This document shows positions 12,229 through 49,931 of a stretch of 64,000 nt of DNA, in pieces. Source of the DNA: Candidatus Krumholzibacteriia bacterium (GTDB lineage Bacteria > Krumholzibacteriota > Krumholzibacteriia > Krumholzibacteriales > Krumholzibacteriaceae). Made by a program: the position numbers and the translations under genes. The stretch spans positions 96,001-160,000 of the forward strand of contig CAWIIQ010000001.1 of NCBI GenBank assembly GCA_963836185.1, written 5' to 3'. Numbering within the stretch: the first letter of the stretch is position 1; the number at the start of each line of letters is the position of its first letter. The notes below the pieces were generated by a model. That model was not told the DNA's origin. It saw only the letters and a program-made list of their open reading frames with translations, and ran no database searches.

Positions 12229-12304
<76 letters not shown>

Positions 12305-28530: not shown

Positions 28531-29625
28531 TCAGGCTATTCCGAGCAGAGTGTCCGCGACACGACGCGTGTCACTCAATTCCAGCCCCGGATAAAGCGGA
28601 AGCGAGATCACAGAATCGCAGGCGGCCTCTGTCACCGGCAGATCTCCCTTTCTGGCACCGAGAAACCGGTATGCTTCCATGAGATGGACCGGTTCGGGAT
28701 AGTGGATCCCGTACCCGATTCCGGCACGGTCCAGTGTATCTATTGTTCGCTGCCGGTCCGGTGTCTGTACAACAAAGAGGTGGTATGTGTGTGTTCCATC
28801 CGGGACTTCGGCGACAGGCCGGTAACTCGAATCGGTCAAAGCGTTCGTGTATGTACGAGCAATCTCGCGGCGGGCCTCTATCGCACCTGACAGGTGCCGC
28901 AGCTTCACGCGGAGAATCGCGGCCTGAAGCTCGTCAAGCCGGCTGTTGAATCCCTCACAATGCGCGTGCCGGTCGTTCCTGAATCCGTAAAACCTCAGCA
29001 CTCGCAGATGTTCCTCCAGGGAGGGATCGTTCGTCACGCAAAGCCCCCCGTCACCAAAGGCGCCGAGGTTCTTTGTCGGATAGAAGGAGAAACAGCCTAT
29101 GTCGCCAAAACTCCCCACATGCCTGCCTTTGTACAGACTTCCATGTGCCTGGGCACAGTCTTCGATGACCTTCAGCCTGTTTGCGGCGGCGAATTCGAGA
29201 ACAGGGTCCAGAGCAGCAGGCTGTCCGTAAAGGTGTACCGGGAGAATGCAGCGTGTGCGATCCGTCAGTGCCGTCTCCAGTTGAGCGCCGTCCATAAGCA
29301 GGGTCGCGGGATCAATATCGACGAACCGCGGTACTGCCCCGACAGCCCTGACCGCGGCGACTGGAGGCACTCCGCAGTTTGCCGTCGTGATCACCTCGTC
29401 GCCGGGGCCGATTCCAAGAGCCCGCAGGGCAAGTATCAACGCGTCGGTGCCTGAGCCCACGCCGACTGCTCCATTCACCCCCGCGTAGTCGGCGAACTCC
29501 CGCTCGAATGCAGATACCTCGGGACCGAGGATCAGCTGGCCCGAAGCAAGTACTCTTCGAATCGCTATCTCGATCTCATCCTTGATCTGAAGATATCCCG
29601 GAAGGTAGTCGAAGAAGTTTATCAT
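28531..29625 (-). CDS. DegT/DnrJ/EryC1/StrS sugar aminotransferase
   Basis: VHLYGQ, EDCAQAHG, FSFYPTKNLGAFGDGG (PLP Lys), NSRLDELQAA. Confidence 0.93.
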   Translation of the reverse strand: MINFFDYLPGYLQIKDEIEIAIRRVLASGQLILGPEVSAFEREFADYAGVNGAVGVGSGTDALILALRALGIGPGDEVITTANCGVPPVAAVRAVGAVPRFVDIDPATLLMDGAQLETALTDRTRCILPVHLYGQPAALDPVLEFAAANRLKVIEDCAQAHGSLYKGRHVGSFGDIGCFSFYPTKNLGAFGDGGLCVTNDPSLEEHLRVLRFYGFRNDRHAHCEGFNSRLDELQAAILRVKLRHLSGAIEARREIARTYTNALTDSSYRPVAEVPDGTHTYHLFVVQTPDRQRTIDTLDRAGIGYGIHYPEPVHLMEAYRFLGARKGDLPVTEAACDSVISLPLYPGLELSDTRRVADTLLGIA

Positions 29626-29629
29626 GGGG

Positions 29630-30610
29630 CTATGCGGCGGGATAACCGATCTCCTGGTAATACTTTACGGTTTTCTCAAGTCCGGCGGCCAGGTCGATCC
29701 TGGGGTTCCAACCTGTCAATTCATGAAACTTATGGAAATCGCTGTAATAATCGCCGATGTCGATGATGCCGATCTCCGGCGGGAATGGTACCATCTCGTA
29801 AGTGAACTCGGTGAATTTCCGCAGTATCTCCACGAACTCGAGAAGACTCTTCGGCTCGGGGTGGCCGATATTCAACGCCTTGCCGGCGGTCTCCCTGGTG
29901 GAGCCGGCAAGGATGAGGGCATCTACCACATCGTCAACATAGTTGAAATCCCGAAGCTGATTGCCCGTCCCATAGATCTCGATGGTCTCACCCCTTAACG
30001 CCTTGCGGACAAAGATACCGACGAATCCCTTGGTATCGCTCTTCAGGTCCATACGGGGCCCATAGGTGTTGGTCAGGCGGAGACTGACGGTACTCATGCC
30101 GTAGACCTTGTGGTAGAGGGAGTAATACATCTCTGCTGCGAGGTTGTTGATTCCGTTGACGTCCACAGGGATAAGTGGATGTTCCTCACTTACCGGCAGG
30201 ACACGCGGCTGGCCATACACCTGGCGTGTGCTGGCAAAGACGATCGCCACCTCCGGGTTCTTGAGACGGCAGCATTCCAGCAGCGACAGCTGACTACGGC
30301 AATTGATCTCCATGTCGGTCAATGGATCGCACATGCTGTCGATATGGCTGATCTGGCCGGCAAGGCTGAAGATCACGTCCTGCCCCTGAACTATGTAACT
30401 CAAGCTGGCAGAGTCCCTGACGTCTGAGAAATTGACGTGCACCTTGTCCTTTATCGGCTCGATGTTAAGGAGCGTCGCGCCGTAAGCGGGCAGCATCGAG
30501 TCTACCAGCGTTACCTGCGCTCCAAGTTCAACGAGGCGCAGGGCGAGGTTGCTGCCGATGAAGCCAATGCCGCCGGTAATCAGTACGCGTTTATCTTTGT
30601 AGATTTCCAT
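29630..30610 (-). CDS. NAD-dependent sugar epimerase/dehydratase (extended SDR)
   Basis: ITGGIGFIGS, RLTNTYGP, RDFNYVDD; atypical catalytic segment NGINN. Confidence 0.88.
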   Translation of the reverse strand: MEIYKDKRVLITGGIGFIGSNLALRLVELGAQVTLVDSMLPAYGATLLNIEPIKDKVHVNFSDVRDSASLSYIVQGQDVIFSLAGQISHIDSMCDPLTDMEINCRSQLSLLECCRLKNPEVAIVFASTRQVYGQPRVLPVSEEHPLIPVDVNGINNLAAEMYYSLYHKVYGMSTVSLRLTNTYGPRMDLKSDTKGFVGIFVRKALRGETIEIYGTGNQLRDFNYVDDVVDALILAGSTRETAGKALNIGHPEPKSLLEFVEILRKFTEFTYEMVPFPPEIGIIDIGDYYSDFHKFHELTGWNPRIDLAAGLEKTVKYYQEIGYPAA

Positions 30611-31557
30611 TGTGACTGTTTTTTTCTCTTTCTTATGTAGCGTATTACATACTGGGGATTCTTTGAATTATCGAGACAGAGACGGCCCAGATATTCGCCG
30701 ATGACGCCCAGGAGCAGAAGCTGCAGCCCGGCGAAGAATACGATTGTAGTGAGGACAGTCGGTATTCCGAGTGTCACATCAGGCGTTATGTACAGCTTGT
30801 CGATAGCGATGGCGATGAACGCAAGAATACTCAAGCCCGAGGCCAGAAGGCCCATCAGAGTGGCAATGCGCAACGGCGCGATGGAAAAGCCAAGGAATGA
30901 GTTCAGCCACAGGAAGAACAGCTTCGATACCGTGTAACTGGATTGCGATGTTTCCCTCGGCCTGTGCTCGACATCTATCTGGCCCAGGTTTCGAGTCGAT
31001 CGCACTATCAATCCGTCAATATATGGAAACGGGCCGTGGTACCCCGTTATCTCGTCCACGACAAAGCGGTTCATGATCTTGAAACTCGACAAGTAGAGGT
31101 CGCGCGGTTTCTTGAGCAACAAGTTGGCAACGTGATGGTTGAGCTGACTCCCAAGGTTGCGCCACCTGCTGTGATGTTTTATCCGGTATCGCCCGAACAC
31201 GACATCGAAATCCTTCTCCCTGATCTCTTCGTACATTTTAAGCAGTTCTTCGGCGGGAGTCTGTCCGTCGTCGTCAAGTGTCGCGATGTAGGCGCCTGAA
31301 GCCTGGCCTAGACCAGCCATGACAGCGTTGTGCTCTCCGAAATTGCGCGACAGGTTGAGAAATGTGATCGTATCGGGGTGTGACTCGTAAAGGGCCTGGC
31401 AGTCTTCTTCGCTGTCGTCGACAGAGCCATCGTTTACGAGCACGATCTCGAAATCGATGCCCGCGAAGACCTCGTGGATGTGTTCGACGACCGTACGGAC
31501 CGCGCCGCAACTGTTGTAGACTGGTATGACAATAGAAAGTTCAGGTGTGGTTTCCAT
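30580..31557 (-). CDS. GT2 polyprenyl-phosphate glycosyltransferase (ArnC/GtrB-like)
   Basis: VNDGSVD, SRNFGEH, DDDGQ, two C-terminal TMs, GEYLGR. Confidence 0.9.
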   Translation of the reverse strand: METTPELSIVIPVYNSCGAVRTVVEHIHEVFAGIDFEIVLVNDGSVDDSEEDCQALYESHPDTITFLNLSRNFGEHNAVMAGLGQASGAYIATLDDDGQTPAEELLKMYEEIREKDFDVVFGRYRIKHHSRWRNLGSQLNHHVANLLLKKPRDLYLSSFKIMNRFVVDEITGYHGPFPYIDGLIVRSTRNLGQIDVEHRPRETSQSSYTVSKLFFLWLNSFLGFSIAPLRIATLMGLLASGLSILAFIAIAIDKLYITPDVTLGIPTVLTTIVFFAGLQLLLLGVIGEYLGRLCLDNSKNPQYVIRYIRKRKKQSQWKSTKINAY

Positions 31558-37322: not shown

Positions 37323-37362
37323 GCACAACGTTGTGTCTGGTTGGATCCAGGAGGTTGGGATA

Positions 37363-37881
37363 ATGGCAGGACGGACTGGCTTGATATTTATGCTGGCGGT
37401 CGTTGTGCTGGCAGCAGGTGGACTTTTTGAGGGCGCCCGCAGCGGAGAGCATCAGCTCGGCGGCGGGATCCATTACCTCGAGACCCTGGGGGATATCAAA
37501 GATGTTCCCGAATGGGATTCAAGTTCTCTCGGGTGGATGATCTCCTATCGGTACAAGATGACCCTGATCAAGATCGAGGCCGATCTCGAATGGATCCCCG
37601 ATTACGGCGGTTCTGATAAAACATTGTCCCAGCCGCAGGTATGGCTCATCGTCGGTGGCCTGATCTATGGCGCGGGAGGTATCGGGGGGAGCTACATCGA
37701 CGGTGCCTGGCTCGACAATCCGTTCTACGGCCTGCGGGCGGGGGCCGATCTCACGGTCGCGGGGCTCAATCTCGACCTGTTCGCGGCGTACTTCTTTCAG
37801 AGCACGCAGGTCTTCGAGGATGTAGACCAGAAGGACCTCGACTCGATTACGTTCGGCGCGATAGTTCGATTCGTATTCTAG
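37363..37881 (+). CDS. Outer-membrane beta-barrel protein
   Basis: RBS AGGAGG; signal peptide; ends GAIVRFVF. Confidence 0.65.
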   Translation: MAGRTGLIFMLAVVVLAAGGLFEGARSGEHQLGGGIHYLETLGDIKDVPEWDSSSLGWMISYRYKMTLIKIEADLEWIPDYGGSDKTLSQPQVWLIVGGLIYGAGGIGGSYIDGAWLDNPFYGLRAGADLTVAGLNLDLFAAYFFQSTQVFEDVDQKDLDSITFGAIVRFVF

Positions 37882-38918
37882 GCTGAGAACTCGGCCGCCA
37901 GGGTCCAGTATGGATCCGTAACCGGATGTACCAGCACCGACTCCTCGCCGCCGTGAACGAGTGTGAGTCCGTTTTTCTCAGGGACGACCTCTCCGCACAC
38001 CGCTCCGGGTATCCCGTTTTCACCCAGCGCGGTTACCAGTTCATCCGCCTGATCTGACGCGACGACCGCGAGCAGCGTGCCTTCGCTGATGGCGCTGTAC
38101 ATATCGAAATCGAAGAGATCCGCAGTTTTCTGTATCACAGGCAGAACAGGAATGAGGTCCCGCTCGATACGCAGTCCGTAGGATCCGGCCCTGGCCATCT
38201 CGAAGAGTCCGCCCAGTATGCCGCACTCGGTTGCGTCGTGCATGACATGAACACCTGGGAACGTCCTGGCTATGGCGCATTCGTCGAGGACCGACATCTG
38301 GTCGAAGACTCCTGCGGCCTCCTTCTGAAAATCCTCGCCGCCGGCTGATATGAACCTGTCAGGGAAAAGCGCCGCGAGCAGACCGGTCGCTTCGATCGCC
38401 GGCCCCTTGGTGATGATTATCTTGTCTCCGACAACGGCTCTGTGCGGTCCCCTCAGCTCTGATTCGTCACCGATAGCGATCGCTGTCGCACCGCCTACCA
38501 TGGGGTAGTTGCAGCCTGTGTATCTTGCTGTATGGCCCGTGACGATACTTACACCGTACCTGACCGACTCCTCGTGGACAGTGTTCCACATCTCTTCCAT
38601 CTGCTCCTCGGTCATCTCCGGCGGCAGATTGAGATCGATAGCGAGATGTTTCGGAGGAAGACCCGATACCGCCACGTCGCAGAAGATGATATGAAAGCCG
38701 AACCAGGCGGCTCTCGCGAAACCCAGTGACGGGACGATAAAGAACGGGTCGGTCGACATCGCGATCGCCTGGCCGCCGACACGTATCACTCCGTAATCGA
38801 CGCCGTGGCGAGGACCGATGATGATACTGTCGTCCGTGACGCCAAGCCGGGGGTAGATCACGCGATCGAAGAACTGTGGGTGGATCTTGCCGAGTTCGGG
38901 CAGTTTTTCCTGGTCCAT
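37878..38918 (-). CDS. AIR-synthase/PurM-like family ATP-dependent enzyme under TPP riboswitch control
   Basis: GPRHGVD, STDP, DVAVSG, VTGHT, MHDATECG, ISEGTLL; lacks the HypE C-terminal Cys. Confidence 0.85.
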   Translation of the reverse strand: MDQEKLPELGKIHPQFFDRVIYPRLGVTDDSIIIGPRHGVDYGVIRVGGQAIAMSTDPFFIVPSLGFARAAWFGFHIIFCDVAVSGLPPKHLAIDLNLPPEMTEEQMEEMWNTVHEESVRYGVSIVTGHTARYTGCNYPMVGGATAIAIGDESELRGPHRAVVGDKIIITKGPAIEATGLLAALFPDRFISAGGEDFQKEAAGVFDQMSVLDECAIARTFPGVHVMHDATECGILGGLFEMARAGSYGLRIERDLIPVLPVIQKTADLFDFDMYSAISEGTLLAVVASDQADELVTALGENGIPGAVCGEVVPEKNGLTLVHGGEESVLVHPVTDPYWTLAAEFSA

Positions 38919-38923
38919 ATTTG

Positions 38924-39020
38924 CTCCCTCCGCAGGTGCTGGCCTGATCAGGTTCGACGGGTCCCTGGATCTCCTCCAGGTTCTCAGCCCCGGTTTCGTC
39001 AGCCGAGGGGCTCCCCGGAT
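38924..39020 (-). promoter_or_regulatory. TPP (THI-box) riboswitch
   Basis: Minus strand GGGGAGC...GGCTGAGA...GACCC GTCGAACCTGATCAGG...CCTGCGGAGGGA; the 3' end overlaps the SD. Confidence 0.92.
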
Positions 39021-39152
39021 ATTTCGTCTGACGAGATGATATTGCAGGCGGGCCGAACTGTCAATAGACTGAAACCGGACCGGTCAGGTATCGTACTATT
39101 AATATAACAGTCTTTCGGGATAAGTATCATTCAGCGATCGAGGAGGGGCAGG

Positions 39153-40247
39153 ATGAACCGTTTCGCGGGAATCATCTTCATACTCATTGTCATTATTGCT
39201 CTGCCATTCTTTTCCGTACAGGGGGGAGAGGCGATAGATCAGTCCGGGGAAATAGGAGCGGCGCCGTACCGGATCCGTATCCCCGCCGACTGGAACGGCA
39301 ACCTTGTCATGTATGCGCACGGATACAAGCCGAGGGGAGGGATGTGGAGGCCGCTGGCGGATGTTCTCGCCGGTGTCTTTCTTGAGCGTGGATTCGCTCT
39401 CGCTGAATCGGGATATTCCAGGCAGGGGTGGGCGCTTGAGGAGGCGATAGCCGAGACCGAAGAGCTGAGGGTCCATTTTTCAGAGGTCCACGGGAAACCT
39501 GATTCGACATTTGTGACCGGACATTCGATGGGAGGGCTCATCACGCTCGCTACGGTCGAGACTTTCTCCGATTCATACGACGGGGCGCTTCCGATGTGCG
39601 GGCCGCTGGCTCCGGCGCTTCTTTTCTTCAGGGACCACGTTTTCGATATGCTGATCACATTCGAGGCGCTTTTCGGAGATCACATCCCCGCTGATTACAA
39701 GCCTGTTATCGAGGTGGCAGCGCTCAGTGGAGCGGTCGTGGAGCAGGCCCTCGCTTCTGATTCTTTGCTCGCGGATACTTATGCCGCGAACAGGGGTGTA
39801 AGGCGGGAGGAACTGGCGGCGATAATCGCCATGGACCACATGTTGTACAAGGAGCTGGCGGACAGGGCGGGCGGCAATCCGATTGACAACCGAAACACGA
39901 TCTACTCTGATTATATCGGATCAGTCGACCTTAACGCCGTCGTTTCGAGATATGCGGCCGATCCATCGGCCCTGGATTACCTGAGGCGCAACTACACTCC
40001 CAGCGGCAGGCCGGGCATGCCGGTCCTCGCCGTTCATACGACATATGACGCAGGCGTACCTCCATGCGTTCCCGGATTCTACAATACGGCGTCCTGCCTT
40101 ATTGATGACGGGAAATACTTTGTGCAGATGTACGCGGAAGCGGACGGGCACTGCAGGTTCACACCGGCCATGACCGGGAAGGCATTCGATCTGTTGAGAG
40201 GATGGGTTGCGTCAGGCGTGCGTCCCGAGCCGGGCCGGCTAGAATGA
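39153..40247 (+). CDS. Secreted alpha/beta hydrolase
   Basis: Signal peptide; YAHG, GHSMGG nucleophile elbow, GHC.F. Confidence 0.8.
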   Translation: MNRFAGIIFILIVIIALPFFSVQGGEAIDQSGEIGAAPYRIRIPADWNGNLVMYAHGYKPRGGMWRPLADVLAGVFLERGFALAESGYSRQGWALEEAIAETEELRVHFSEVHGKPDSTFVTGHSMGGLITLATVETFSDSYDGALPMCGPLAPALLFFRDHVFDMLITFEALFGDHIPADYKPVIEVAALSGAVVEQALASDSLLADTYAANRGVRREELAAIIAMDHMLYKELADRAGGNPIDNRNTIYSDYIGSVDLNAVVSRYAADPSALDYLRRNYTPSGRPGMPVLAVHTTYDAGVPPCVPGFYNTASCLIDDGKYFVQMYAEADGHCRFTPAMTGKAFDLLRGWVASGVRPEPGRLE

Positions 40248-41666
40248 TCATTTCTCCGCGAACTCGTTCTGCCAAACGGGATCGCTGAGTTTCCGGTATC
40301 CGTCAGCATATTCTTCCATCACACGATGATAGCCGGGGTCTTCCAGGGCCTCGGCCGCAGCCTCGTTGATCGGCCTGGCGCCGGTCTCGACAACAGCGGT
40401 GCGCAGTTGGTCGAAATGATCCCGGATAGGGCAGGGGCAGAGCCAGTTCCCGACCTCTTCTGCGGGCCGTCCGAATCCGTATTCGTACTGCCAGTCGTGG
40501 ATCTTTTGAAAAAACGGGGTCTTGAGCAGTGACGAGAGGTCATCTCCCCGCTCGTATACGTCGTAGATATTGTCGGCCGCGTAGGGAACGAAGACGCACG
40601 GCGTGACGTCGCCGTTCCAGTCTATGTAGAACTGACCTCCAGGGCGGCCCGCGCTGATGCATCCGTAGCTGGCTATTCCGCTGTTCCAGAAATCGGCAAA
40701 GAGGATCTTCTTGTCAAAGACTATGCGCCGGGTTCTCTTGAGCATTTCGAGGCGGTTCTCCGGGGTTATCATAAGGTCGAGGTCGGGGTCGCGTCCGATA
40801 GGCATGTACTGGAAGCACCAGATGTAGACCGCTCCCTGCTCTTCGACGCAGAAATCGAGGAATTCATCGCTCGTGAGCAGATCCCAGTTCCGGTTGGTCG
40901 GAGTGATCGATATCCCGAACGGGACGCCGTGCCTGCGCAGCCTCTCGAATGTGTCGAGGATCTTCCTGAAAACACCATTCCCCCTGCGCGCGTCCGTTTC
41001 CTTTTCATACCCTTCCAGAGACAGCGCGGGGGTGATGTTCCCGAGTTCTCCCATCCGCTTCGCCGTATCGTCGTCGATCAGCGTGCCATTCGTGTAAGTC
41101 ATGAAGTACTCGGTCGGGTGTTTTTCAGCGAGGTCCAGGATGCCTCGCTCGCCGTCACGCCAGAGAAACGGCTCCCCGCCCGAGACGATCGTCAGGTAGG
41201 AGTCCCACAGCTCTCTTTTCTCGGTGACGATCCTGTCGAATATCTCCCACGAGAGACTCGCGTGTTTTGTCGGGTCGCTTGCCGCGTAGCACCCCTCACA
41301 TTTCAGGTTGCATGTCCCGGTCGGGCTTACGACGAGCACGAGGGGATTGTGTTCCGTAGATGGCCCTTCACGTCTTTCATTAACGACTATATTCTCAAGG
41401 ACCGATCCAAGAAGTCTGTCGAGGACATTCCTTGATACATGTCCGCTTGTCATAGCCCTGTGGAAACCATGGAAGAGGGCCATCATGTAGGCGTGCTTGA
41501 GCTCCTGCACGCCTCGCGGCCGTCCATCCTCGTTCTCCACGACAAGTTTCTGGTAAATACGCCGGTTTACGATATCGACAAGGATCTTCCTCGACAGGCG
41601 GTTCTCCAGCATAAGCCGGTAGAGCTCCCTGACCGAGGAGCTTTCGAGGATTTTCCCTGGTATCAT
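40248..41666 (-). CDS. Radical SAM protein with partial SPASM-like C-terminus
   Basis: CNLKCEGC (CX3CX2C), SGGEP, TNGTL, GCISAG...PCVF, CPIRD. Confidence 0.88.
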   Translation of the reverse strand: MIPGKILESSSVRELYRLMLENRLSRKILVDIVNRRIYQKLVVENEDGRPRGVQELKHAYMMALFHGFHRAMTSGHVSRNVLDRLLGSVLENIVVNERREGPSTEHNPLVLVVSPTGTCNLKCEGCYAASDPTKHASLSWEIFDRIVTEKRELWDSYLTIVSGGEPFLWRDGERGILDLAEKHPTEYFMTYTNGTLIDDDTAKRMGELGNITPALSLEGYEKETDARRGNGVFRKILDTFERLRRHGVPFGISITPTNRNWDLLTSDEFLDFCVEEQGAVYIWCFQYMPIGRDPDLDLMITPENRLEMLKRTRRIVFDKKILFADFWNSGIASYGCISAGRPGGQFYIDWNGDVTPCVFVPYAADNIYDVYERGDDLSSLLKTPFFQKIHDWQYEYGFGRPAEEVGNWLCPCPIRDHFDQLRTAVVETGARPINEAAAEALEDPGYHRVMEEYADGYRKLSDPVWQNEFAEK

Positions 41667-42396: not shown

Positions 42397-43623
42397 CTAT
42401 TTGAATTCGACGTAGTCGAAATCGTCCCAGTCGATCTCGATCTCCTCGCCAGAGTCGAGGATCACAAATATCCCCTTGTTTTCATCGTCGACGTCGTTCG
42501 ATCCCTTGACCTTGAATTCGTGGCCGTCCCAGAGGGTGATGATTGAAGAGCAGCATCCCTTGCGCCGGATCGAGCTGATGTTACCCAGTTCGATATCCAT
42601 CTCGACGCCCCTGAACTCGGTATCCATGACTTCCCAGGTGTATTCCTCATCGTCATCCCACCTGATATTTCCCGTGTACGATTCGCCTGAATCGGTATGG
42701 ACGGTGCCCCTGAGAAGCTTTCCTCCGTCGAAACGGCTGTACTCTACCGGGGCGGCTGCTTCCTCGAAATCGATGCGGTCGAATTCGTCCCAGTCGACCT
42801 TTACGACGCCGAAGTCCTCGACAAAGATGGAGATCCCTCTGTTCGAGCTGTCCACGTCGTTAGTGCCTTTCAGCGTGATCTCGTCGCCGTTCTTGAGGGT
42901 GACACGCGCGCTGCTCGAACTGCGGCGTTCGATCGACCTGATCTTTCCGAACTCGATCTCGCGGTCGCGTCCGCGCTGCTCGCCGTCCAGCACGTCCTCT
43001 TCCAGGACCTCGTCAGCGTCCCAGACGACCCAACCGGTAAATGTATCGTCTTTTCTTGTGGTAAGCGTTCCGTACAGCCTGTCTCCATAGTCTGAATAGA
43101 CCTCGTAGCCGCCCTGGCTGAATTCGACACGGTCGATTTCGTCCCATTCGAACTCTATCTCGCCCTCATCGGGATCCTCCACGATTATACCGCGGATATT
43201 GTCGCCGATGTCGGTCGAGCCGGCCTTGACTTCCATCTCTTCGCCGGACTTGAATATGAGCAGAGCAGTGTCATCTTCTATGACTTCGATAGCTTCGAGG
43301 TGGCCGAACGCCACGGCGCACTGAGCTGACATATTGTAGGAACCCTTTGTCTTCACGTTGCCGACACGTATACCGAAAATACGGATCGACTTTACCTTCT
43401 CATTGTCTTTGTACCGGCGCTTGGAGAGTTCGAGTTCCTTCGTGCAGTCGATCATATCGACCCACGAAACCTCGTTCTTGTCCCACCTGATCAGGCCATC
43501 GTACCTTTCGCCTTCAGATGTGATTACTCTGCCGTGTATCCTGCCGCGCGCGTCGGCGAATGATGGCGCGGATACAGTCGCGGCGAGGACCAGGATCAGC
43601 CCTGTCGTCAGGAGCTTCTTCAT
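42397..43623 (-). CDS. Secreted acidic protein with three internal ~125-aa repeats
   Basis: Signal peptide; GxxxT...G.I/V.WD.xE repeated three times; ATGA overlap with the RND stop. Confidence 0.75.
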   Translation of the reverse strand: MKKLLTTGLILVLAATVSAPSFADARGRIHGRVITSEGERYDGLIRWDKNEVSWVDMIDCTKELELSKRRYKDNEKVKSIRIFGIRVGNVKTKGSYNMSAQCAVAFGHLEAIEVIEDDTALLIFKSGEEMEVKAGSTDIGDNIRGIIVEDPDEGEIEFEWDEIDRVEFSQGGYEVYSDYGDRLYGTLTTRKDDTFTGWVVWDADEVLEEDVLDGEQRGRDREIEFGKIRSIERRSSSSARVTLKNGDEITLKGTNDVDSSNRGISIFVEDFGVVKVDWDEFDRIDFEEAAAPVEYSRFDGGKLLRGTVHTDSGESYTGNIRWDDDEEYTWEVMDTEFRGVEMDIELGNISSIRRKGCCSSIITLWDGHEFKVKGSNDVDDENKGIFVILDSGEEIEIDWDDFDYVEFK

Positions 43624-46600
43624 ATCGATAGCCTCCGTTCAGGTTCAGCGGGCGCCGCTGGCTGCGTGCCCTTTGCGTTAGCGATGATTCTTCTGGACCA
43701 GTTTCTCAGATCGTCGAGAATGGCATATATCGTCGGCAGGACCAGAAGGGTTATCATCGTTGAGAATGTTAACCCGCCGACGATCGCTCTGGCCATAGGG
43801 AAATAGGGCGGTCCGTTGCCGCCTATCTGAGTTGCCACGACACAAAGAGGGACGAGGCTCAGCACTGTCGTGCCGGCCGTCATGAGGATTGGCCTGAGCC
43901 TGTCACGGCCAGCCTGCACGATGGCGTCGTTCCTCTTTAATCCTTTCAAGCGCAGATGGTTTATGTGGTCGACCAGTACGATCCCGTTGTTCACTACAAC
44001 ACCTATCAATATCAGTATCCCTATCATGGCCATGATCGACATCGTGGTGCCTGTCAACAGGAAGAACCAGTAGACACCGACTATGGAGAATATTATCTGG
44101 GTCCATATAGCCGTCGGGTAGAGGAGCGACTCGAACAATGAAGCCATCACGAAGTATATAAGCGCGAGCGCCAGCAGCAGGTTGATCAGCATCGTGTTCA
44201 TCGCTTCCTGCTCGTGGTCAAAACTCTGGCCGTAGTTCCAGGAATACCCGGCGGGGAAGTTGTAGTTACCCAGCACGAACGAGATCATCTTCTGCGCTTC
44301 ACCCTTGGTGACATCTGTCAGGTTGGCTGAGATTCCCAGGGAGGTCGTCCTGTCTTCCCTGCGGATATTCCGCGGCCCGCGACGAATCCGGAAATCCGCG
44401 AGAGAGGCCAGCTTGACCGTTCTGCCCGTTCTTGAATGAAGAGGAAGGTCCTTTAACTGCTCCAGTGTCTCCCGGTCCTCCTCCTGGAACTCGAGGCGGA
44501 TATCGATCTCGCCCGATTCGCCGTGCATCTTTCTCAGGTTCACGCCTCGCATCGCCGCCGAGATGACCTGCGCGATCTCACCCGCCGAAAAGCCGTATTG
44601 CCTCGCGCGATCGCGATCTACCGATATCTGGACTTCCTCTTCTCCTTTTTCCGCGTCGGAACGCACATCGGAGAACCCGGGGAGCTGGCTGAGGGTCCAC
44701 GCGACGTCCTGTGAGATCTCCGCCAGTTTCTCGCTCGATTTGCCGGTGAGACTGATGTTGATAGATGTGCCGCCGCCTCCCTGGTTTCGCCATGTGAACG
44801 AGGGGTTGGCGATTGCCATCTTGGGCAGGCCCTCTTTTATCTCGTCTTTTATTTCCTTGGTCGATTTCTTCGTTCCCTCTTTATTCAGGAGTATCGTCGA
44901 AGACGCGTAGTCGCCCTGGAAGTAACTGTAGATAGATTCTATCTCGAATTTATCCTGATTTTCGAACAGGTAATCCTCGTATTCGGTCACGGCCGCCTCG
45001 ACCTTCTCCAGGGTATAGCTTCCGTTGATATGGTAGTGGAGCCTGATCCGCCGGTCCTCCGGTTCATCGAACATGTCCGTCTTGACGAACTTCATAGGAA
45101 CGGCGATGCTCAGGAGCAGGCCGATGATTATCCAGACGGTGGCTTTCCTGTGGCGCATGGTCCATTCGAGAGCGACGGCGTATTTTCCGATCAACTTGTC
45201 GATGACAGTCTTTTTTGTAACGGGCTTCGGCGGTTTGATCCTCGACGAGAGAAGGGGGACGATCGTCTGAGCCAGCAGGAGGGAGACTCCGAGGGCTATG
45301 ACGATCGTTATCCCGATGTGCTTCAGGTATATGGAGATATCATCGTTAGGGCTTACGATATTTGGCAGGAAGACTATCCCCGTCGTTGCTGTTCCCGCCG
45401 TGATAGCCATGGATACTTCCCTGACACCGGTAGAGATCGACTTCGTTGAGCCGGGATCGGCAAGCTGATGCCGATGTATGCTTTCGGTCACAACGACCGC
45501 GTTGTCGACGAGCATCCCAACGGCGAGCATCAACCCCATCATCGACAGGATGTTCAACGTCACTCCCATGAAGTACATGAATGTAAGCGTGATAAGCAGG
45601 GACAGCGGCACGGCCAGTGCGACGATGAAAGTCGTTACAAGGCGCCTGAGAAAAAAGAAAAGGATCAGAACCGCTAGAGAGCCTCCTATGAGGCCGGACT
45701 TAAGTACCTCGTTAAGAGAGCTTGTGACGCCCTCGGCGAGATTGTCCATGTAGAATATGCTGATTCCCTCCATCTCGGGAATCTCCTTGATGATCTCGAT
45801 CTCCGCGATGATCCTGTCGGTCACCTCGACCAGGTTCGCTCCGCCCTCTTTGAATACGTTGAGTCCGATCGCGTACTTCCTGTTGAGATGCCTGCCGTAA
45901 TGACGCTCGGGCTGTTCGTATGTCACGGTCGCGATGTCGCTGAGCCTGAGGCCGTGCTCCCCGACGATCACCCGCCCGATCTCTTCGATGGACTGGTACT
46001 CCCCGACCGGCCTCACCACGAACCTCTGGTTCTGATCGGTTATCTTGCCGGCCGTTACGAGGAAATTGCTGCGGCGCAGAGTCTGTGAGAGCTGACCGAT
46101 ATCTATTCCATGCTGGATTATCCTGTCTGCCGAGAGTTTGATCCGAACTTCCTTCTTCTGCACGCCGTAGAGATCGACCTTGGAGACGCCCTCGATCCTC
46201 TCGATCCTTCTCTTGACGTTCCTGTTGAGCATGTCATACGAATTCGACAGGTCACGGTTGCTCGATATCCTCAGGGTCAGTATCTCCATGTCGGCAGTCG
46301 ACCATTTCAGGACATGGAAACGTTCCAGGTCGTCAGGGAAGAGGTGCCTGATCCCCTCGAGCTTCTCCTTCGCTTCGAGGGCCTTGACGTCGGTGTCGAC
46401 TCCCCATTCGAACTCGAGCCTGATCCACGCGCCGTTTGTATGTGAATTCGATTCCATACGTTTGAATCCGCTGATGGTCGCTATGACCTCCTCCGCGGGT
46501 CTTGTTATCTGGCGCTCGATCTCCTCTGGAGTGGAGCCGGGGTAGGGGATGTCGATAAATATGAACGGTGCGTCGAGATCGGGGAAATATTCCATGGGCA

Positions 46601-46694
46601 GGAGCCTGGCCGAGATGATCCCGAGCACGATGAAGCACACGAAGACCATAAGGGTCGTCACCGGGCGCTTGATCGATGCGTTCGTCAGGTTCAT
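43620..46694 (-). CDS. RND efflux permease (AcrB/MdtB-like), subunit 2
   Basis: GMLVDNAVVV.E, VNNGIVLVD, RLRPILMT. Confidence 0.93.
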   Translation of the reverse strand: MNLTNASIKRPVTTLMVFVCFIVLGIISARLLPMEYFPDLDAPFIFIDIPYPGSTPEEIERQITRPAEEVIATISGFKRMESNSHTNGAWIRLEFEWGVDTDVKALEAKEKLEGIRHLFPDDLERFHVLKWSTADMEILTLRISSNRDLSNSYDMLNRNVKRRIERIEGVSKVDLYGVQKKEVRIKLSADRIIQHGIDIGQLSQTLRRSNFLVTAGKITDQNQRFVVRPVGEYQSIEEIGRVIVGEHGLRLSDIATVTYEQPERHYGRHLNRKYAIGLNVFKEGGANLVEVTDRIIAEIEIIKEIPEMEGISIFYMDNLAEGVTSSLNEVLKSGLIGGSLAVLILFFFLRRLVTTFIVALAVPLSLLITLTFMYFMGVTLNILSMMGLMLAVGMLVDNAVVVTESIHRHQLADPGSTKSISTGVREVSMAITAGTATTGIVFLPNIVSPNDDISIYLKHIGITIVIALGVSLLLAQTIVPLLSSRIKPPKPVTKKTVIDKLIGKYAVALEWTMRHRKATVWIIIGLLLSIAVPMKFVKTDMFDEPEDRRIRLHYHINGSYTLEKVEAAVTEYEDYLFENQDKFEIESIYSYFQGDYASSTILLNKEGTKKSTKEIKDEIKEGLPKMAIANPSFTWRNQGGGGTSINISLTGKSSEKLAEISQDVAWTLSQLPGFSDVRSDAEKGEEEVQISVDRDRARQYGFSAGEIAQVISAAMRGVNLRKMHGESGEIDIRLEFQEEDRETLEQLKDLPLHSRTGRTVKLASLADFRIRRGPRNIRREDRTTSLGISANLTDVTKGEAQKMISFVLGNYNFPAGYSWNYGQSFDHEQEAMNTMLINLLLALALIYFVMASLFESLLYPTAIWTQIIFSIVGVYWFFLLTGTTMSIMAMIGILILIGVVVNNGIVLVDHINHLRLKGLKRNDAIVQAGRDRLRPILMTAGTTVLSLVPLCVVATQIGGNGPPYFPMARAIVGGLTFSTMITLLVLPTIYAILDDLRNWSRRIIANAKGTQPAAPAEPERRLSI

Positions 46695-49600
46695 CTATTT
46701 TCTCCTGTCGAGCAGATCATATACGACAGGTATTACGATAAGAGTAAGCAGTGTCGATACGCTGAGCCCTCCGATGACGGTGATCGCCATCGGTGCTCTC
46801 ACTTCAGCGCCCTCGCCGATCCCCATGGCCAGCGGGAGAAGGCCGAGTGTAGTCGTAAGTGTTGTCATGAGAATCGGCCGCAGCCTCGATTTGCCGCCTT
46901 CAAGGATAGCCGCCCGTTTTCCCGTTCCTCCGTCACGCAGCTGATTGATCAGGTCGATCAGCACGATCGCGTTGTTTACCACTATTCCCGCGAGAAGTAT
47001 AAGGCCGATGAAAACGACCACGCTGATAGTAGAGCCGGTCAGGAACAGGGCCCAGACCGCTCCGATCAGCGCCAGTGGAATCGTAAAGAGGATTACGAAG
47101 GGATGCAGGAATGATTCGAACTGGGATGCCATCACGAGGTAGACGAGGAATACTGCCAGAAGGAGAGCGAACTGGAGAGACTTGAAGGACTTCGCCATCT
47201 CCTGGTTCTGCCCGGCTATGTTGATCGCCAGACCGGCGGGCATGGGGATGCTGCGAATCATGCCGTTTATCTCCTCGGCAGCAGTGCCGAGATCGCCGTA
47301 GTTCAGGTTGGCCGTCACGAGGGCTACCCTTTCCTGGTCGACACGCCTGATCTCGCCGGGGCCTGTGTCGAGTGTGATGTCCGCGACCGCTTCGAGCGTG
47401 ACGGGTCTTTCGCTTTCCGGGTTGATGATCAATTTTCTTATCTTGTCGACCGAGTTCCTGTCCGATTCCTTCGCGCGGACGAGGATGTCGATCTTCCGGT
47501 CGCGCCAGGAGTAGCGTGATGCGACATCGCCGCGGACCTTGCTCACTACGCGGTCGGCGACCTCGTAGACCTGGAACCCGAGGGCCGCGGCTTTCTCGCG
47601 GTCGAATCTTATCTGGATCTCGGGATGCCCCGCTTTCATAGTCGATTTTACATCGGCGAAGCGGGGATTCGAGTCGAGCCTGGAGGCTATATCGTTGCTG
47701 ACCTTCTTGAGGCTTCGCAGATCGTATCCGGCGATCTCTATCTCGACAGGAGTCTTGAAAGTGAACAGAGTCGGTCTCGAGAACTTGTACTGCAGGTCGG
47801 GAACGCGATGCAGATCATCACGCATCTGGGCCATGACTCTTTCCTCGTCGTTTCGCTGCGAACCGGGCAGGAGTACGACATTGAGTTCACCCCAGTTCTC
47901 GCCGCCCTGCTCGGGATTGGCGTCCATTCTGTTGCCGGTGCCGGCTACCGCGAAAACGGTGCTGATGCCGGATATGTCCCTGGTAGATTCCTGGACGCTT
48001 CTTATCGCCCTGTCGGTCACTTCGAGCGGAGTGCCGGGGGAGAGGCGGAACTCGACGCTGAACTCGCCCTGCGAGAGCTGCGGAATCAGCTCTACGCCCA
48101 GGTTCCTGGCCATCAGCATCGTCCCGAAAAACAGGATAAGCGCTATCAGTATGACTCTACCCCTGTGATCGAGTGACCACGCGAGCGTGCCGTCGTACCA
48201 TCCGGCGACGACATCGTAAAATTTAGTGAAGAGCTTGAGTATGGGCCTGAGCAGGAAGGAAAAGATTCTCGCCAGACCCCGGCAGATGCCCAGTATGACT
48301 CTCGTGAAAAAGACAGGAACAGTATTGAAAATGAATCTGCCGAACGCCGAGAACCATCTGCCGACACGTCTTTTCGGTTCTTTTTTCGGAGCCGGAGCAG
48401 GCGGCGGCTCTTTGTTAGACTGCAGGGACGCCAGCATGGGGATGAGCGTCAGGGCTACCACAAGAGACGCGATCAGCGCGAAGGTGACCGTAAGAGCCTG
48501 GTCCCTGAATAGCTGCCCCGAGATTCCCGAGACGAATACGAGCGGCAGGAAAACAGCGACCGTGGTGAGCGTCGAGGCTGTCACAGCCTTGCCGACCTCG
48601 CCCGCGCCGTCCCGGGCAGAGTCGGCGATATTCTTTCCCATCGCCCGGTGTCGGGATATGTTTTCCAGCACGACGATGGAGTTGTCCAGGAGCATTCCGA
48701 CCCCGAGCGCGATCCCTCCGAGAGACATGATGTTGAGTGTCAGGTCCGAGCCGTACATCATATTGAATGTCGCGATAATGGATACAGGTATGGAAAGGGA
48801 TATGATGACGGTTGCCCAGAAATTCTGCAGGAAGAGGTAGAGGATGATTATCGCGAGGATGCCTCCGATGACGGCTGCCTGTATGACCTCGTTGATCGCC
48901 TGTCTGATGAAGGTCGACTGGTCGTAGACCTTGACGAGGTTGTACCCTTCAGGCAGGACCTTTTTCGTGCGGCCGAGATGTTTCTCGACCTCGCGGGCCA
49001 CGGCGACAGTGTTGGCGTCGCCCTCTTTGTATATCGCGATCTCCACAGCCTCGCGCCCGTTTAGCCTGGTGATCGCCTCTCTCTCCTTGAAGCCGTGCCT
49101 GACTGTAGCGATATCGCGAAGATATATCGGCTTGCCGTCCTTCGTGGAGACGACGACATCCCCGATCTCCTCGACCGATTCGAACTCGTTAAGTGTCCTG
49201 ACGAGGTACTGCTGTGTTCCTTCCTCGAGCCTGCCGCCCGAGAGGTTGACGTTCTCCGCCCCTATCTGGGTGGCCAGGGCACTTATCGGCAGGTCCAGCT
49301 GGGCCGTGCGCTGCTGATCGATGAATATCTGTATTTCATCCTCGAGGCCTCCGCTGACCTTGACCGCGGCGACTCCGAGGGAAGCCTCGAGCTCTTTCTT
49401 TACCTCTTCCTCGGCGAACCGGCGGAGGAACTTCAGTTCCTCCTCGTCGAACCAGTCGCCGGATGAGTCTGCGCTGTCAGCTTTCGCTTCCGAATCAGTT
49501 TCCTTGTAGAACCCGAATCGCATGACCGGGTCGAGGGAGGGGTCGAACCGCAGAAGAGTCGGCCGTTCGACGTCCAGAGGCAGCTGAAGCACGTCGAGTT

Positions 49601-49931
49601 TTTCGCGAACGTCGAGACTCGCGTAATCCATGTCTGTTCCCCAGGCGAACTCGAGGATCACATCGGATTGCCCCGAACGTGAGATCGAGCTTACCCGGTT
49701 GACGTTCTTGACCACCCCGAGAACTTCCTCGATCGGTTTCGATATGACGTTTTCTATCTCGGCTGGAGCGGCGCCTGGATATTCGGTGCGTACCGTCAGT
49801 GTGGGATATGTCAGTTCGGGTAGAAGGTTGATTTTGAGCCGGGAAAAAGAGACTGCCCCGAACAGTATGATTGCCAGCGTGAACATCGCTATCGTCACAC
49901 GCCGCCGGATGGAGACATCGATTATCTTCAT
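46695..49931 (-). CDS. RND efflux permease (AcrB/MdtC-like), subunit 1
   Basis: GMLLDNSIVVLENI, VNNAIVLID, RLRPILMT. Confidence 0.93.
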   Translation of the reverse strand: MKIIDVSIRRRVTIAMFTLAIILFGAVSFSRLKINLLPELTYPTLTVRTEYPGAAPAEIENVISKPIEEVLGVVKNVNRVSSISRSGQSDVILEFAWGTDMDYASLDVREKLDVLQLPLDVERPTLLRFDPSLDPVMRFGFYKETDSEAKADSADSSGDWFDEEELKFLRRFAEEEVKKELEASLGVAAVKVSGGLEDEIQIFIDQQRTAQLDLPISALATQIGAENVNLSGGRLEEGTQQYLVRTLNEFESVEEIGDVVVSTKDGKPIYLRDIATVRHGFKEREAITRLNGREAVEIAIYKEGDANTVAVAREVEKHLGRTKKVLPEGYNLVKVYDQSTFIRQAINEVIQAAVIGGILAIIILYLFLQNFWATVIISLSIPVSIIATFNMMYGSDLTLNIMSLGGIALGVGMLLDNSIVVLENISRHRAMGKNIADSARDGAGEVGKAVTASTLTTVAVFLPLVFVSGISGQLFRDQALTVTFALIASLVVALTLIPMLASLQSNKEPPPAPAPKKEPKRRVGRWFSAFGRFIFNTVPVFFTRVILGICRGLARIFSFLLRPILKLFTKFYDVVAGWYDGTLAWSLDHRGRVILIALILFFGTMLMARNLGVELIPQLSQGEFSVEFRLSPGTPLEVTDRAIRSVQESTRDISGISTVFAVAGTGNRMDANPEQGGENWGELNVVLLPGSQRNDEERVMAQMRDDLHRVPDLQYKFSRPTLFTFKTPVEIEIAGYDLRSLKKVSNDIASRLDSNPRFADVKSTMKAGHPEIQIRFDREKAAALGFQVYEVADRVVSKVRGDVASRYSWRDRKIDILVRAKESDRNSVDKIRKLIINPESERPVTLEAVADITLDTGPGEIRRVDQERVALVTANLNYGDLGTAAEEINGMIRSIPMPAGLAINIAGQNQEMAKSFKSLQFALLLAVFLVYLVMASQFESFLHPFVILFTIPLALIGAVWALFLTGSTISVVVFIGLILLAGIVVNNAIVLIDLINQLRDGGTGKRAAILEGGKSRLRPILMTTLTTTLGLLPLAMGIGEGAEVRAPMAITVIGGLSVSTLLTLIVIPVVYDLLDRRK

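Follow-up and report, generated by a model that had tools for sequence, protein, structure and literature searches.

In this analysis, we focus on a 64,000-nucleotide stretch of the genome of a Candidatus Krumholzibacteriia bacterium (GenBank assembly GCA_963836185.1, contig CAWIIQ010000001.1, positions 96,001 to 160,000), hereafter the window, and particularly on one of its minus-strand genes, which encodes a protein of the PurM superfamily, P0001, and lies directly behind a riboswitch for thiamine pyrophosphate (TPP). This association of a TPP switch with a PurM-fold gene is a real feature of the locus (Table 1). We will argue that the family to which P0001 belongs likely supplies thiazole phosphate to ThiE, and we will then weigh the chemistries by which it might do so.

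An earlier note on this DNA, made from the sequence alone, had placed a TPP riboswitch before the open reading frame, and the covariance-model search agrees: all model positions (1-105) of RF00059 are matched, with a score above the gathering score of 54.3 bits, and this aptamer is the sole RF00059 match in a scan of the 3.5-Mb genome, which is 92.5% complete. The promoter-like site TTGACA-17-TATCAT ends 9 nt 5' of the aptamer (2 such sites were found, against 0.5 +/- 0.7 in shuffles), and a transcription start about 7 nt past it would leave a 5' leader barely longer than the aptamer itself. A search for terminator-like sites in this leader found none. The Shine-Dalgarno (SD) sequence GGAGGGAG lies inside the aptamer, with 5 nt between it and the ATG at 38918. 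The earlier note had seen it there too, but had assigned it to the 3' strand of P1, and this part has to be amended: the SD is built from the J5/4-P4 3' strand and the initial bases of P1, within the conserved AGGGA segment, and P1 has about 2 bp here and is weak in 25 relatives too. Folding by minimum free energy without ligand failed to give the full aptamer and is not used as evidence. Direct sequestration of the SD is a described mode of TPP riboswitches. Since the promoter stands directly before the aptamer, the leader has no terminator-like site and the SD lies within the aptamer, translational shut-off through such sequestration is the natural reading of the leader anatomy: the binding of TPP would lock the SD and block the translation of P0001.

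The protein carries the Pfam domains AIRS and AIRS_C, both over cut-off, and its predicted structure (predicted local distance difference test score, pLDDT, of 94) matches HypE best in Foldseek, then SelD, ThiL and PurM, in agreement with the PurM fold first recognised from its motifs. It stays under every NCBIfam cut-off (73.7 bits against 251.6 for HypE, 48.9 against 184 for ThiL and 45.7 against 125 for SelD). The terminal cysteine of HypE and the ThiL motif, both of which had been reported missing, are indeed absent: the C-terminus reads ...DPYWTLAAEFSA (ending in AAEFSA) without the PRIC cysteine, while the genome's own HypE ends in PRIC, and ISEGTL stands at the position of the ThiL GEDY/GEEY. 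The genome encodes separate thiL, hypE, selD, PurM and PurL. In an IQ-TREE phylogeny of 25 rows, in which the references are 5 ThiL and 1 HypE only and the outgroup branches are long, the family forms one clade (96/96), which a 98/97 branch sets on the side of HypE, and the approximately unbiased (AU) test rejects a tree constrained to unite it with ThiL (p-AU 0.008). The enzyme is thus neither ThiL nor HypE, as had been proposed.

Conservation, counted over 138 core family sequences, extends to four histidines (His76, His129, His227 and His331) and to several motifs. H227-DATECG aligns with IDISDG of ThiL and RDATRGG of HypE, and D81-VAVSGLPP is the DX4GAXP-type motif of the PurM superfamily. 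Glu279 and Trp338 are conserved as well, close to the positions of the GEDY and C-terminal aromatic motifs of ThiL, which have a role in the binding of thiamine monophosphate (TMP). Thousands of database proteins belong to the family (of 8000 scored candidates, 4874 match at E <= 1e-100), and they go in databases by the names of HypE, hydrogenase maturation factor or AIR synthase family. A search of the ESM Atlas returned AIRS-labelled clusters only, and our literature searches, limited to open-access and bioRxiv full text, found no paper on a role of this family in thiamine metabolism.

The NCBIfam and Pfam scans find no thi or hyp family among the six nearest neighbours of the gene, as first noted, and in close relatives it is solitary too. 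The window, whose genes are annotated in part, contains none of the genome's thiL, thi4, hypE, thiD2-thiE and thiC. The survey of homologs for TPP switches and thi neighbours that had been suggested does bring such a context to light. A relaxed aptamer pattern, which admits AACTTG variants, was found within 900 nt upstream of the family gene in 31/46 GTDB loci (26/46 with a stricter pattern) and in 17/80 metagenome loci, but not in any control window, and Rfam confirmed the TPP aptamer in 14 of 16 pattern-positive loci, in 6 of 15 loci chosen for diversity and in 3 of 7 Dehalococcoidia regions. By tblastn, thiE lies within 5 kb in 23 of the 80 metagenome loci, usually as the next gene downstream, thiD in 10 and tenA in 9. 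The operon order gene-tenA-thiE-thiL-thiD recurs in four loci, and thiL shares the operon in L132, L144, L160 and L162. In genomes G068 and G100, which have ThiD and lack ThiC, ThiG, Thi4 and ThiM, the TPP switch is followed by a methyltransferase, the family gene, tenA and thiE. Fusions to ThiN occur in both orientations, N-terminal (L065, P0172) and C-terminal (P0123, P0199). A divergent thiamine-binding-protein gene adjoins the family gene in five bacterial loci (L040, L042, L111-L113) and on two Haloarcula plasmids, where a thiamine ABC binding protein (tbpA) is added. The assignment to thiamine is strong, and the link is family-wide.

Several observations accompany this survey. In L030 and L031, directly upstream of the gene, there is only the 3' half of an aptamer (GAACCTGA...GCGxAG), apparently a decayed switch, and in L013, L022 and L044 the remnant consists of the SD part only. 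In L040-L042, a GGGGAG...CTCCCC hairpin precedes the gene by about 40-100 nt, in L040 and L042 between the gene and the divergent thiamine-binding-protein gene; it has no Rfam match in the two loci scanned. Genes for class I S-adenosylmethionine (SAM) methyltransferases recur upstream (L066, L067, L159, L165) or downstream (L047, L048, L051, L210, L213); those of L066 and L165 belong to the TPP operon itself. The search for longer family forms gave only P0122 (928 aa), a truncated member joined to a TonB-dependent receptor and probably an artefact, possibly a frameshift join of adjacent genes; a TonB receptor is also encoded upstream of the gene in L130. A member at 70% identity in L024 belongs to a genome labelled Patescibacteria (G241) without ThiC or ThiE match, for which mis-binning or recent transfer is possible. 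Group B relatives, at about 30% identity to the family, have a DPIT motif and a C-terminal DE and form a separate PurM-fold subfamily; they are fused to an N-terminal HAD hydrolase in L091 (confirmed by Pfam) and L092, have no thi gene among their annotated neighbours, and 4 of the 8 group B genomes included in the ThiM search have ThiM.

The pathway profiles indicate which step is concerned. The genome of P0001 has ThiC, a His-type Thi4, ThiL and, as its thiamine-phosphate synthase, a ThiD2-ThiE fusion (G000:C1:1839189-1839731; L097:1420-2499, -), and it gives no match to ThiG, ThiM, ThiD, TPK or TenA. This bears on the alternative TMP kinase that the earlier note had in mind, and on the related idea of a kinase for hydroxymethylpyrimidine phosphate (HMP-P) that would replace ThiD. 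The fold is that of ThiL, ThiD is absent in 18/18 carriers of the genome's taxonomic family (canonical ThiD occurs in 1 of 23 relatives there, a non-carrier) and the ThiN fusion recalls archaeal ThiDN; however, because thiL is present in the genome itself and in the same operons as the family gene, the TMP kinase guess is not supported, and the tree adds to the rejection of a ThiL isozyme. The replacement of ThiD, an idea first raised by the lack of thiD and by the ThiN fusion, was dropped once the own ThiE showed its ThiD2 domain; thiD also neighbours the family gene in a part of the metagenome loci, as given above. Of all the readings considered here, this second TMP or HMP-P kinase is the least probable.

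The taxonomic family was sampled through 24 genomes, 88-99% complete, of which 18 carry the gene and 6 do not. ThiE is present in 24/24, ThiG and ThiM in 0/24, and all 24 have Thi4, the family gene or both: Thi4 is found in all 6 non-carriers, and the 12 genomes without it all carry the gene, 11 of these having ThiC too. We then considered 58 non-redundant carriers from several phyla (36 via loci, 20 from the phylum of the source genome and 2 more, counted without duplicates or group B relatives), many of which are incomplete metagenome-assembled genomes whose kin are not independent. ThiM is present in 0 of them, ThiG in 2 and Thi4 in 12; 44/58 have no synthase, and 34 of these have both ThiC and ThiE. 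Five more Dehalococcoidia carriers, searched for Thi4, ThiM and ThiG, lack all three, so that ThiM is absent in 63/63 carriers. In the phylum of the source genome, ThiM occurs in 1 of 14 non-carriers tested, and as it is rare there anyway, its absence from carriers weighs little. Since ThiE is useless without thiazole phosphate, yet many carriers with ThiE lack a known source of it, the family likely supplies thiazole phosphate to ThiE, a step well supported by this genomic pathway-hole argument. The family gene stands beside thiE and is present where ThiG, Thi4 and ThiM are absent, as would be seen for a gap-filling gene of the ThiM kind. The present sample also holds three genomes with ThiC, ThiE and ThiM and no synthase; the combination of ThiC, ThiD, ThiE and ThiM without synthase is described in PMC6593275 as a recognised type of hydroxyethylthiazole (HET) auxotroph.

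The same profiles speak on three further readings. A kinase acting on nothing but intact thiamine, which it would convert to TMP for ThiL in the place of ThiK or TPK, would suit the lack of TPK in 5/5 carriers tested, the lack of TenA in the own genome, the thiamine-binding-protein and tbpA neighbours and the positions of Glu279 and Trp338, but it would leave thiC and thiE without thiazole source in 34/58 carriers and explain neither the thiE adjacency nor the ThiN fusion. We regard it as improbable, and the earlier guess of a thiamine kinase alone thus gives way to thiazole phosphate supply. It is very improbable that the family repairs damage, a PurM-like activation of formamide with sulfide re-closing desthio- or ring-opened thiamine fragments or re-aminating oxythiamine. 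This would join the salvage context with the sulfur context described below and would match the chemistry of PurM and HypE, and orphan degradation products of thiamine do exist (PMC11223231); its product would nevertheless depend on ThiM or on a kinase for thiamine, and ThiM is missing from 63/63 carriers and TPK from 5/5. The presence of Thi4 in the own genome first suggested a missing hydrolase that would free carboxythiazole phosphate from the Thi4 product adenosine diphosphothiazole (ADT) through a SelD-like alpha-beta cleavage. Thi4 in G065 and G039, an ADP-binding fold and the ThiN fusions are in its favour, but no match to Thi4 is found in 46/58 carriers, and the 6 non-carriers of the taxonomic family all have Thi4 without the gene; this reading was dropped since most carriers lack Thi4, and its chances are even slimmer than those of repair. 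What endures of the earlier interpretation is an ATP-dependent step in the synthesis or the salvage of thiamine, supported by the riboswitches, the thiE adjacency, the ThiN fusions and the tree.

The chemistry of the step lies between a new analogue of ThiM and a third thiazole synthase, and the evidence is close. Our preferred reading, which we hold tentatively and with a chance just short of even, is that P0001 is a HET kinase, perhaps also acting on thiamine, that replaces ThiM. A PurM-fold, ATP-dependent kinase would phosphorylate the hydroxyethyl arm of a scavenged thiazole (HET or carboxy-HET, possibly whole thiamine), by direct transfer of the gamma-phosphate if the analogy with ThiL and SelD holds, and the resulting thiazole phosphate would be coupled to hydroxymethylpyrimidine pyrophosphate (HMP-PP) by ThiE or ThiN. 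The family would stand in for ThiM without being homologous to it and, because ThiC, ThiD2-ThiE, Thi4 and ThiL together give the own genome an unbroken de novo route, the gene would serve there as a thiamine-repressed entry for salvage. The coexistence with Thi4 or ThiG in 14/58 carriers, the own genome included, would fit salvage enzymes. The family gene precedes thiE as thiM does in 5/5 control loci, where thiM and thiE are adjacent, and thiM is found in 0/136 family loci. P0001 also has residues in common with two phosphotransferases: Lys11 corresponds to SelD Lys20, His129 to the SelD GH motif and Glu231 to the acidic position of ThiL, while the Lys/Arg residues of HypE are not kept. This kinase role is predicted from genomics and from the fold.

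The sulfur-supply context of the family has to be set beside this. In 28/80 metagenome loci, the gene lies among sulfur-supply genes, and only 2 of these 28 also have a thi gene. In such operons, it occupies the slot of thi4: Rrf2-cysK-thi4 (L222) has its counterpart in Rrf2-cysK-gene (L141, L155, L181), and Rrf2-thi4-nifS (L223) in Rrf2-gene-nifS (L147), the order nifS-gene-MOSC-fdhD-nadA (L215/L216, L124) also entering this slot comparison. The neighbours are CysK, NifS, NifU, MOSC, CysE, LarE, FdhD, MnmA and HcyBio, which is the neighbour list published for Thi4 in PMC13325395. Among the Thi4 genes of the survey (L197-L223 and L204), several of which stand in sulfur-relay operons, 14 of the 15 sequences inspected have a His in the LHxDP motif; we take this His to be catalytic and to mark the sulfide-using type.

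These loci, together with two near-invariant cysteines, make a strong rival of another reading, in which the family would make thiazole phosphate de novo as a third synthase, besides ThiG and Thi4, or would carry out the key insertion of sulfur in such a synthesis. The enzyme would use ATP along with sulfide or with a persulfide derived from NifS, the sulfur being carried by Cys136/Cys232 or by a metal bound by His, Asp and Glu, and would close the thiazole ring with glycine on a putative backbone of pentose phosphate or deoxyxylulose phosphate. Such a synthase would explain the 44/58 synthase-less carriers without auxotrophy and the loss of Thi4 in 12/18 carriers of the taxonomic family against 0/6 non-carriers. 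It would also suit the distribution among 91 Dehalococcoidia (family gene in 9, Thi4 in 22, both in 2), the dxs match in 5/5 carriers (over cut-off in 4), the two near-invariant cysteines and the nearest named relative, HypE, which activates an S-C(=O)-N group. With thi4 within 5 kb in only 1/136 loci, present-day hitch-hiking with thi4 is rare. On the other hand, the sulfur context belongs mostly to one subclade, largely of Dehalococcoidales, with few cases outside it (L054, L065; TauE at L052 and L126), and cysK adjoins thiM too in 1 of the 5 control loci. The family has no conserved partner enzyme, multistep chemistry of this sort is without precedent on the PurM fold, the activity would duplicate that of Thi4 or ThiG in 14/58 carriers, and both cysteines are missing from most of the deep members linked to thiamine, namely the ThiN fusions and those of haloarchaea. 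Dehalococcoides mccartyi CBDB1, which reportedly needs added thiamine, would also speak against the synthase if it carries the family gene. On balance, we find the synthase possible but rather unlikely.

The HET kinase in turn has several points to answer. It would have no evident need for the sulfur-gene loci nor for the use of the Thi4 slot in Rrf2-cysK-nifS operons, and Cys136, Cys232, His76, His129, His227 and His331 exceed what an alcohol kinase needs. The 44/58 synthase-less carriers would have to be thiazole auxotrophs, and a possible transporter is linked in few loci only (L128 MFS, L130 TonB, L166 ECF-like), ThiW not having been searched genome-wide. The rarity of ThiM in the phylum of the source genome and the incompleteness and kinship of the profiled genomes, both described above, also count here. 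The evidence being close, it is the precedent of the fold that makes us rank the kinase over the synthase.

Either way, thousands of proteins now labelled HypE or AIR synthase family become tied to thiazole phosphate supply in genomes that would otherwise have a pathway hole. If the kinase is true, a new counterpart of ThiM has arisen by convergence and the PurM fold gains an activity, and predictions of auxotrophy and cross-feeding for sediment anaerobes would be corrected. A synthase would be a third thiazole route, dependent on ATP and sulfur, that takes the place of Thi4 and ThiG in many lineages of anaerobes (Krumholzibacteriota, Margulisiibacteriota, Zixiibacteriota, Aminicenantes, Dehalococcoidia); annotation would now be wrongly calling these lineages thiazole auxotrophs. 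PMC11223231 describes the canonical thiamine pathway as being without missing enzymes.

The three neighbours of the P0001 gene in Table 1 are without relation to thiamine, and the remaining window features of Table 1 were judged as indicated there.

Table 1. Features of the P0001 locus and of the rest of the window, in window coordinates.
Feature	Coordinates	Strand	Basis and remarks
Sigma-70-like promoter TTGACA-17-TATCAT	39036..39064	-	11/12 consensus matches
TPP riboswitch aptamer RF00059	38907..39027	-	Rfam covariance model, 58.7 bits, E 6e-9; very short P1
Shine-Dalgarno GGAGGGAG	38924..38931 (reads 38931-38924)	-	within aptamer, P4 3' strand / P1 junction
P0001 gene, 346 aa, PurM superfamily (AIRS + AIRS_C)	37878..38918	-	open reading frame list, Pfam; predicted thiazole phosphate supplier
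Lys11	38886..38888	-	kept in 137/138 core sequences (one gap); aligned with SelD Lys20
D81-VAVSGLPP motif	38652..38678	-	alignment of core sequences
G128-HTARYTG-C136 loop	38511..38537	-	His129 invariant; Cys136 in 131/138 core sequences
H227-DATECG motif	38220..38240	-	His227, Asp228, Thr230, Glu231 invariant; Cys232 in 136/138
Divergent neighbour	39153-40247	+	weakly alpha/beta-hydrolase-like protein
Neighbour	40248-41666	-	radical SAM/SPASM protein
Unassigned 173-aa open reading frame	37360-37881	+	stop overlaps the stop of the P0001 gene
tRNA	12229-12301	+	GUU anticodon
Two tandem RND-like exporters	43620-49931	-	judged on translations alone
Aminotransferase/epimerase/glycosyltransferase trio	28531-31557	-	judged on translations alone

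It is finally useful to compare P0001 with the known systems that it recalls. HypE, the carbamoyl dehydratase of hydrogenase maturation (TIGR02124; PDB 3VYT, 3WJP, 2I6R), is its best match in sequence and in structure (Foldseek template modelling score, TM, 0.77-0.78; 21-24% identity), lies on the same side of the tree and has the Asp ligands and the DxT motif in common with it; P0001 differs by the missing PRIC cysteine, by GHTA for GDTK, by Glu231 for Arg, by a score far under the HypE cut-off, by the true hypE elsewhere in the genome and by a context of thiamine, not hydrogenase. ThiL, the thiamine-phosphate kinase (TIGR01379; PDB 3C9T), has the same fold (TM 0.68), the same pathway and the same acidic residue in the D-x-S/T-D/E motif, but identity is 14-17%, the clades are separate, ISEG replaces GEDY and true thiL co-exists with the family gene in genome and operons. 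SelD, the selenophosphate synthetase (TIGR00476; PDB 3U0O), has the N-terminal Lys and the GH motif in common with P0001 and offers the analogy for a gamma-phosphate transfer; in P0001 there is no Cys/Sec three residues before this Lys (the sequence reads E-L-G-K11), its score is under the SelD cut-off and selD is separate.

ThiM, the hydroxyethylthiazole kinase (TIGR00694, PF02110), has a ribokinase-like fold unrelated to the PurM fold, and P0001 has no sequence match to either model; the family would nevertheless have a similar job, its kinase activity being predicted, and it has a similar position beside thiE, with tenA and thiD, likewise in genomes with ThiC and ThiE and no synthase, the two never occurring together in 63 carriers. 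Thi4, the sulfide-dependent thiazole synthase (TIGR00292), has a slot in Rrf2-cysK-nifS operons that is interchangeable with the family gene and a largely complementary distribution, but its fold differs, both coexist in 12/58 carriers and the family has no sign of NAD or glycine use. As for the switch, it resembles the TPP riboswitches with the SD in the aptamer, with all model positions matched and the SD in the AGGGA segment, and it differs from them by its P1 of about 2 bp, by the unnamed enzyme that it controls and by being the only TPP switch of its genome.

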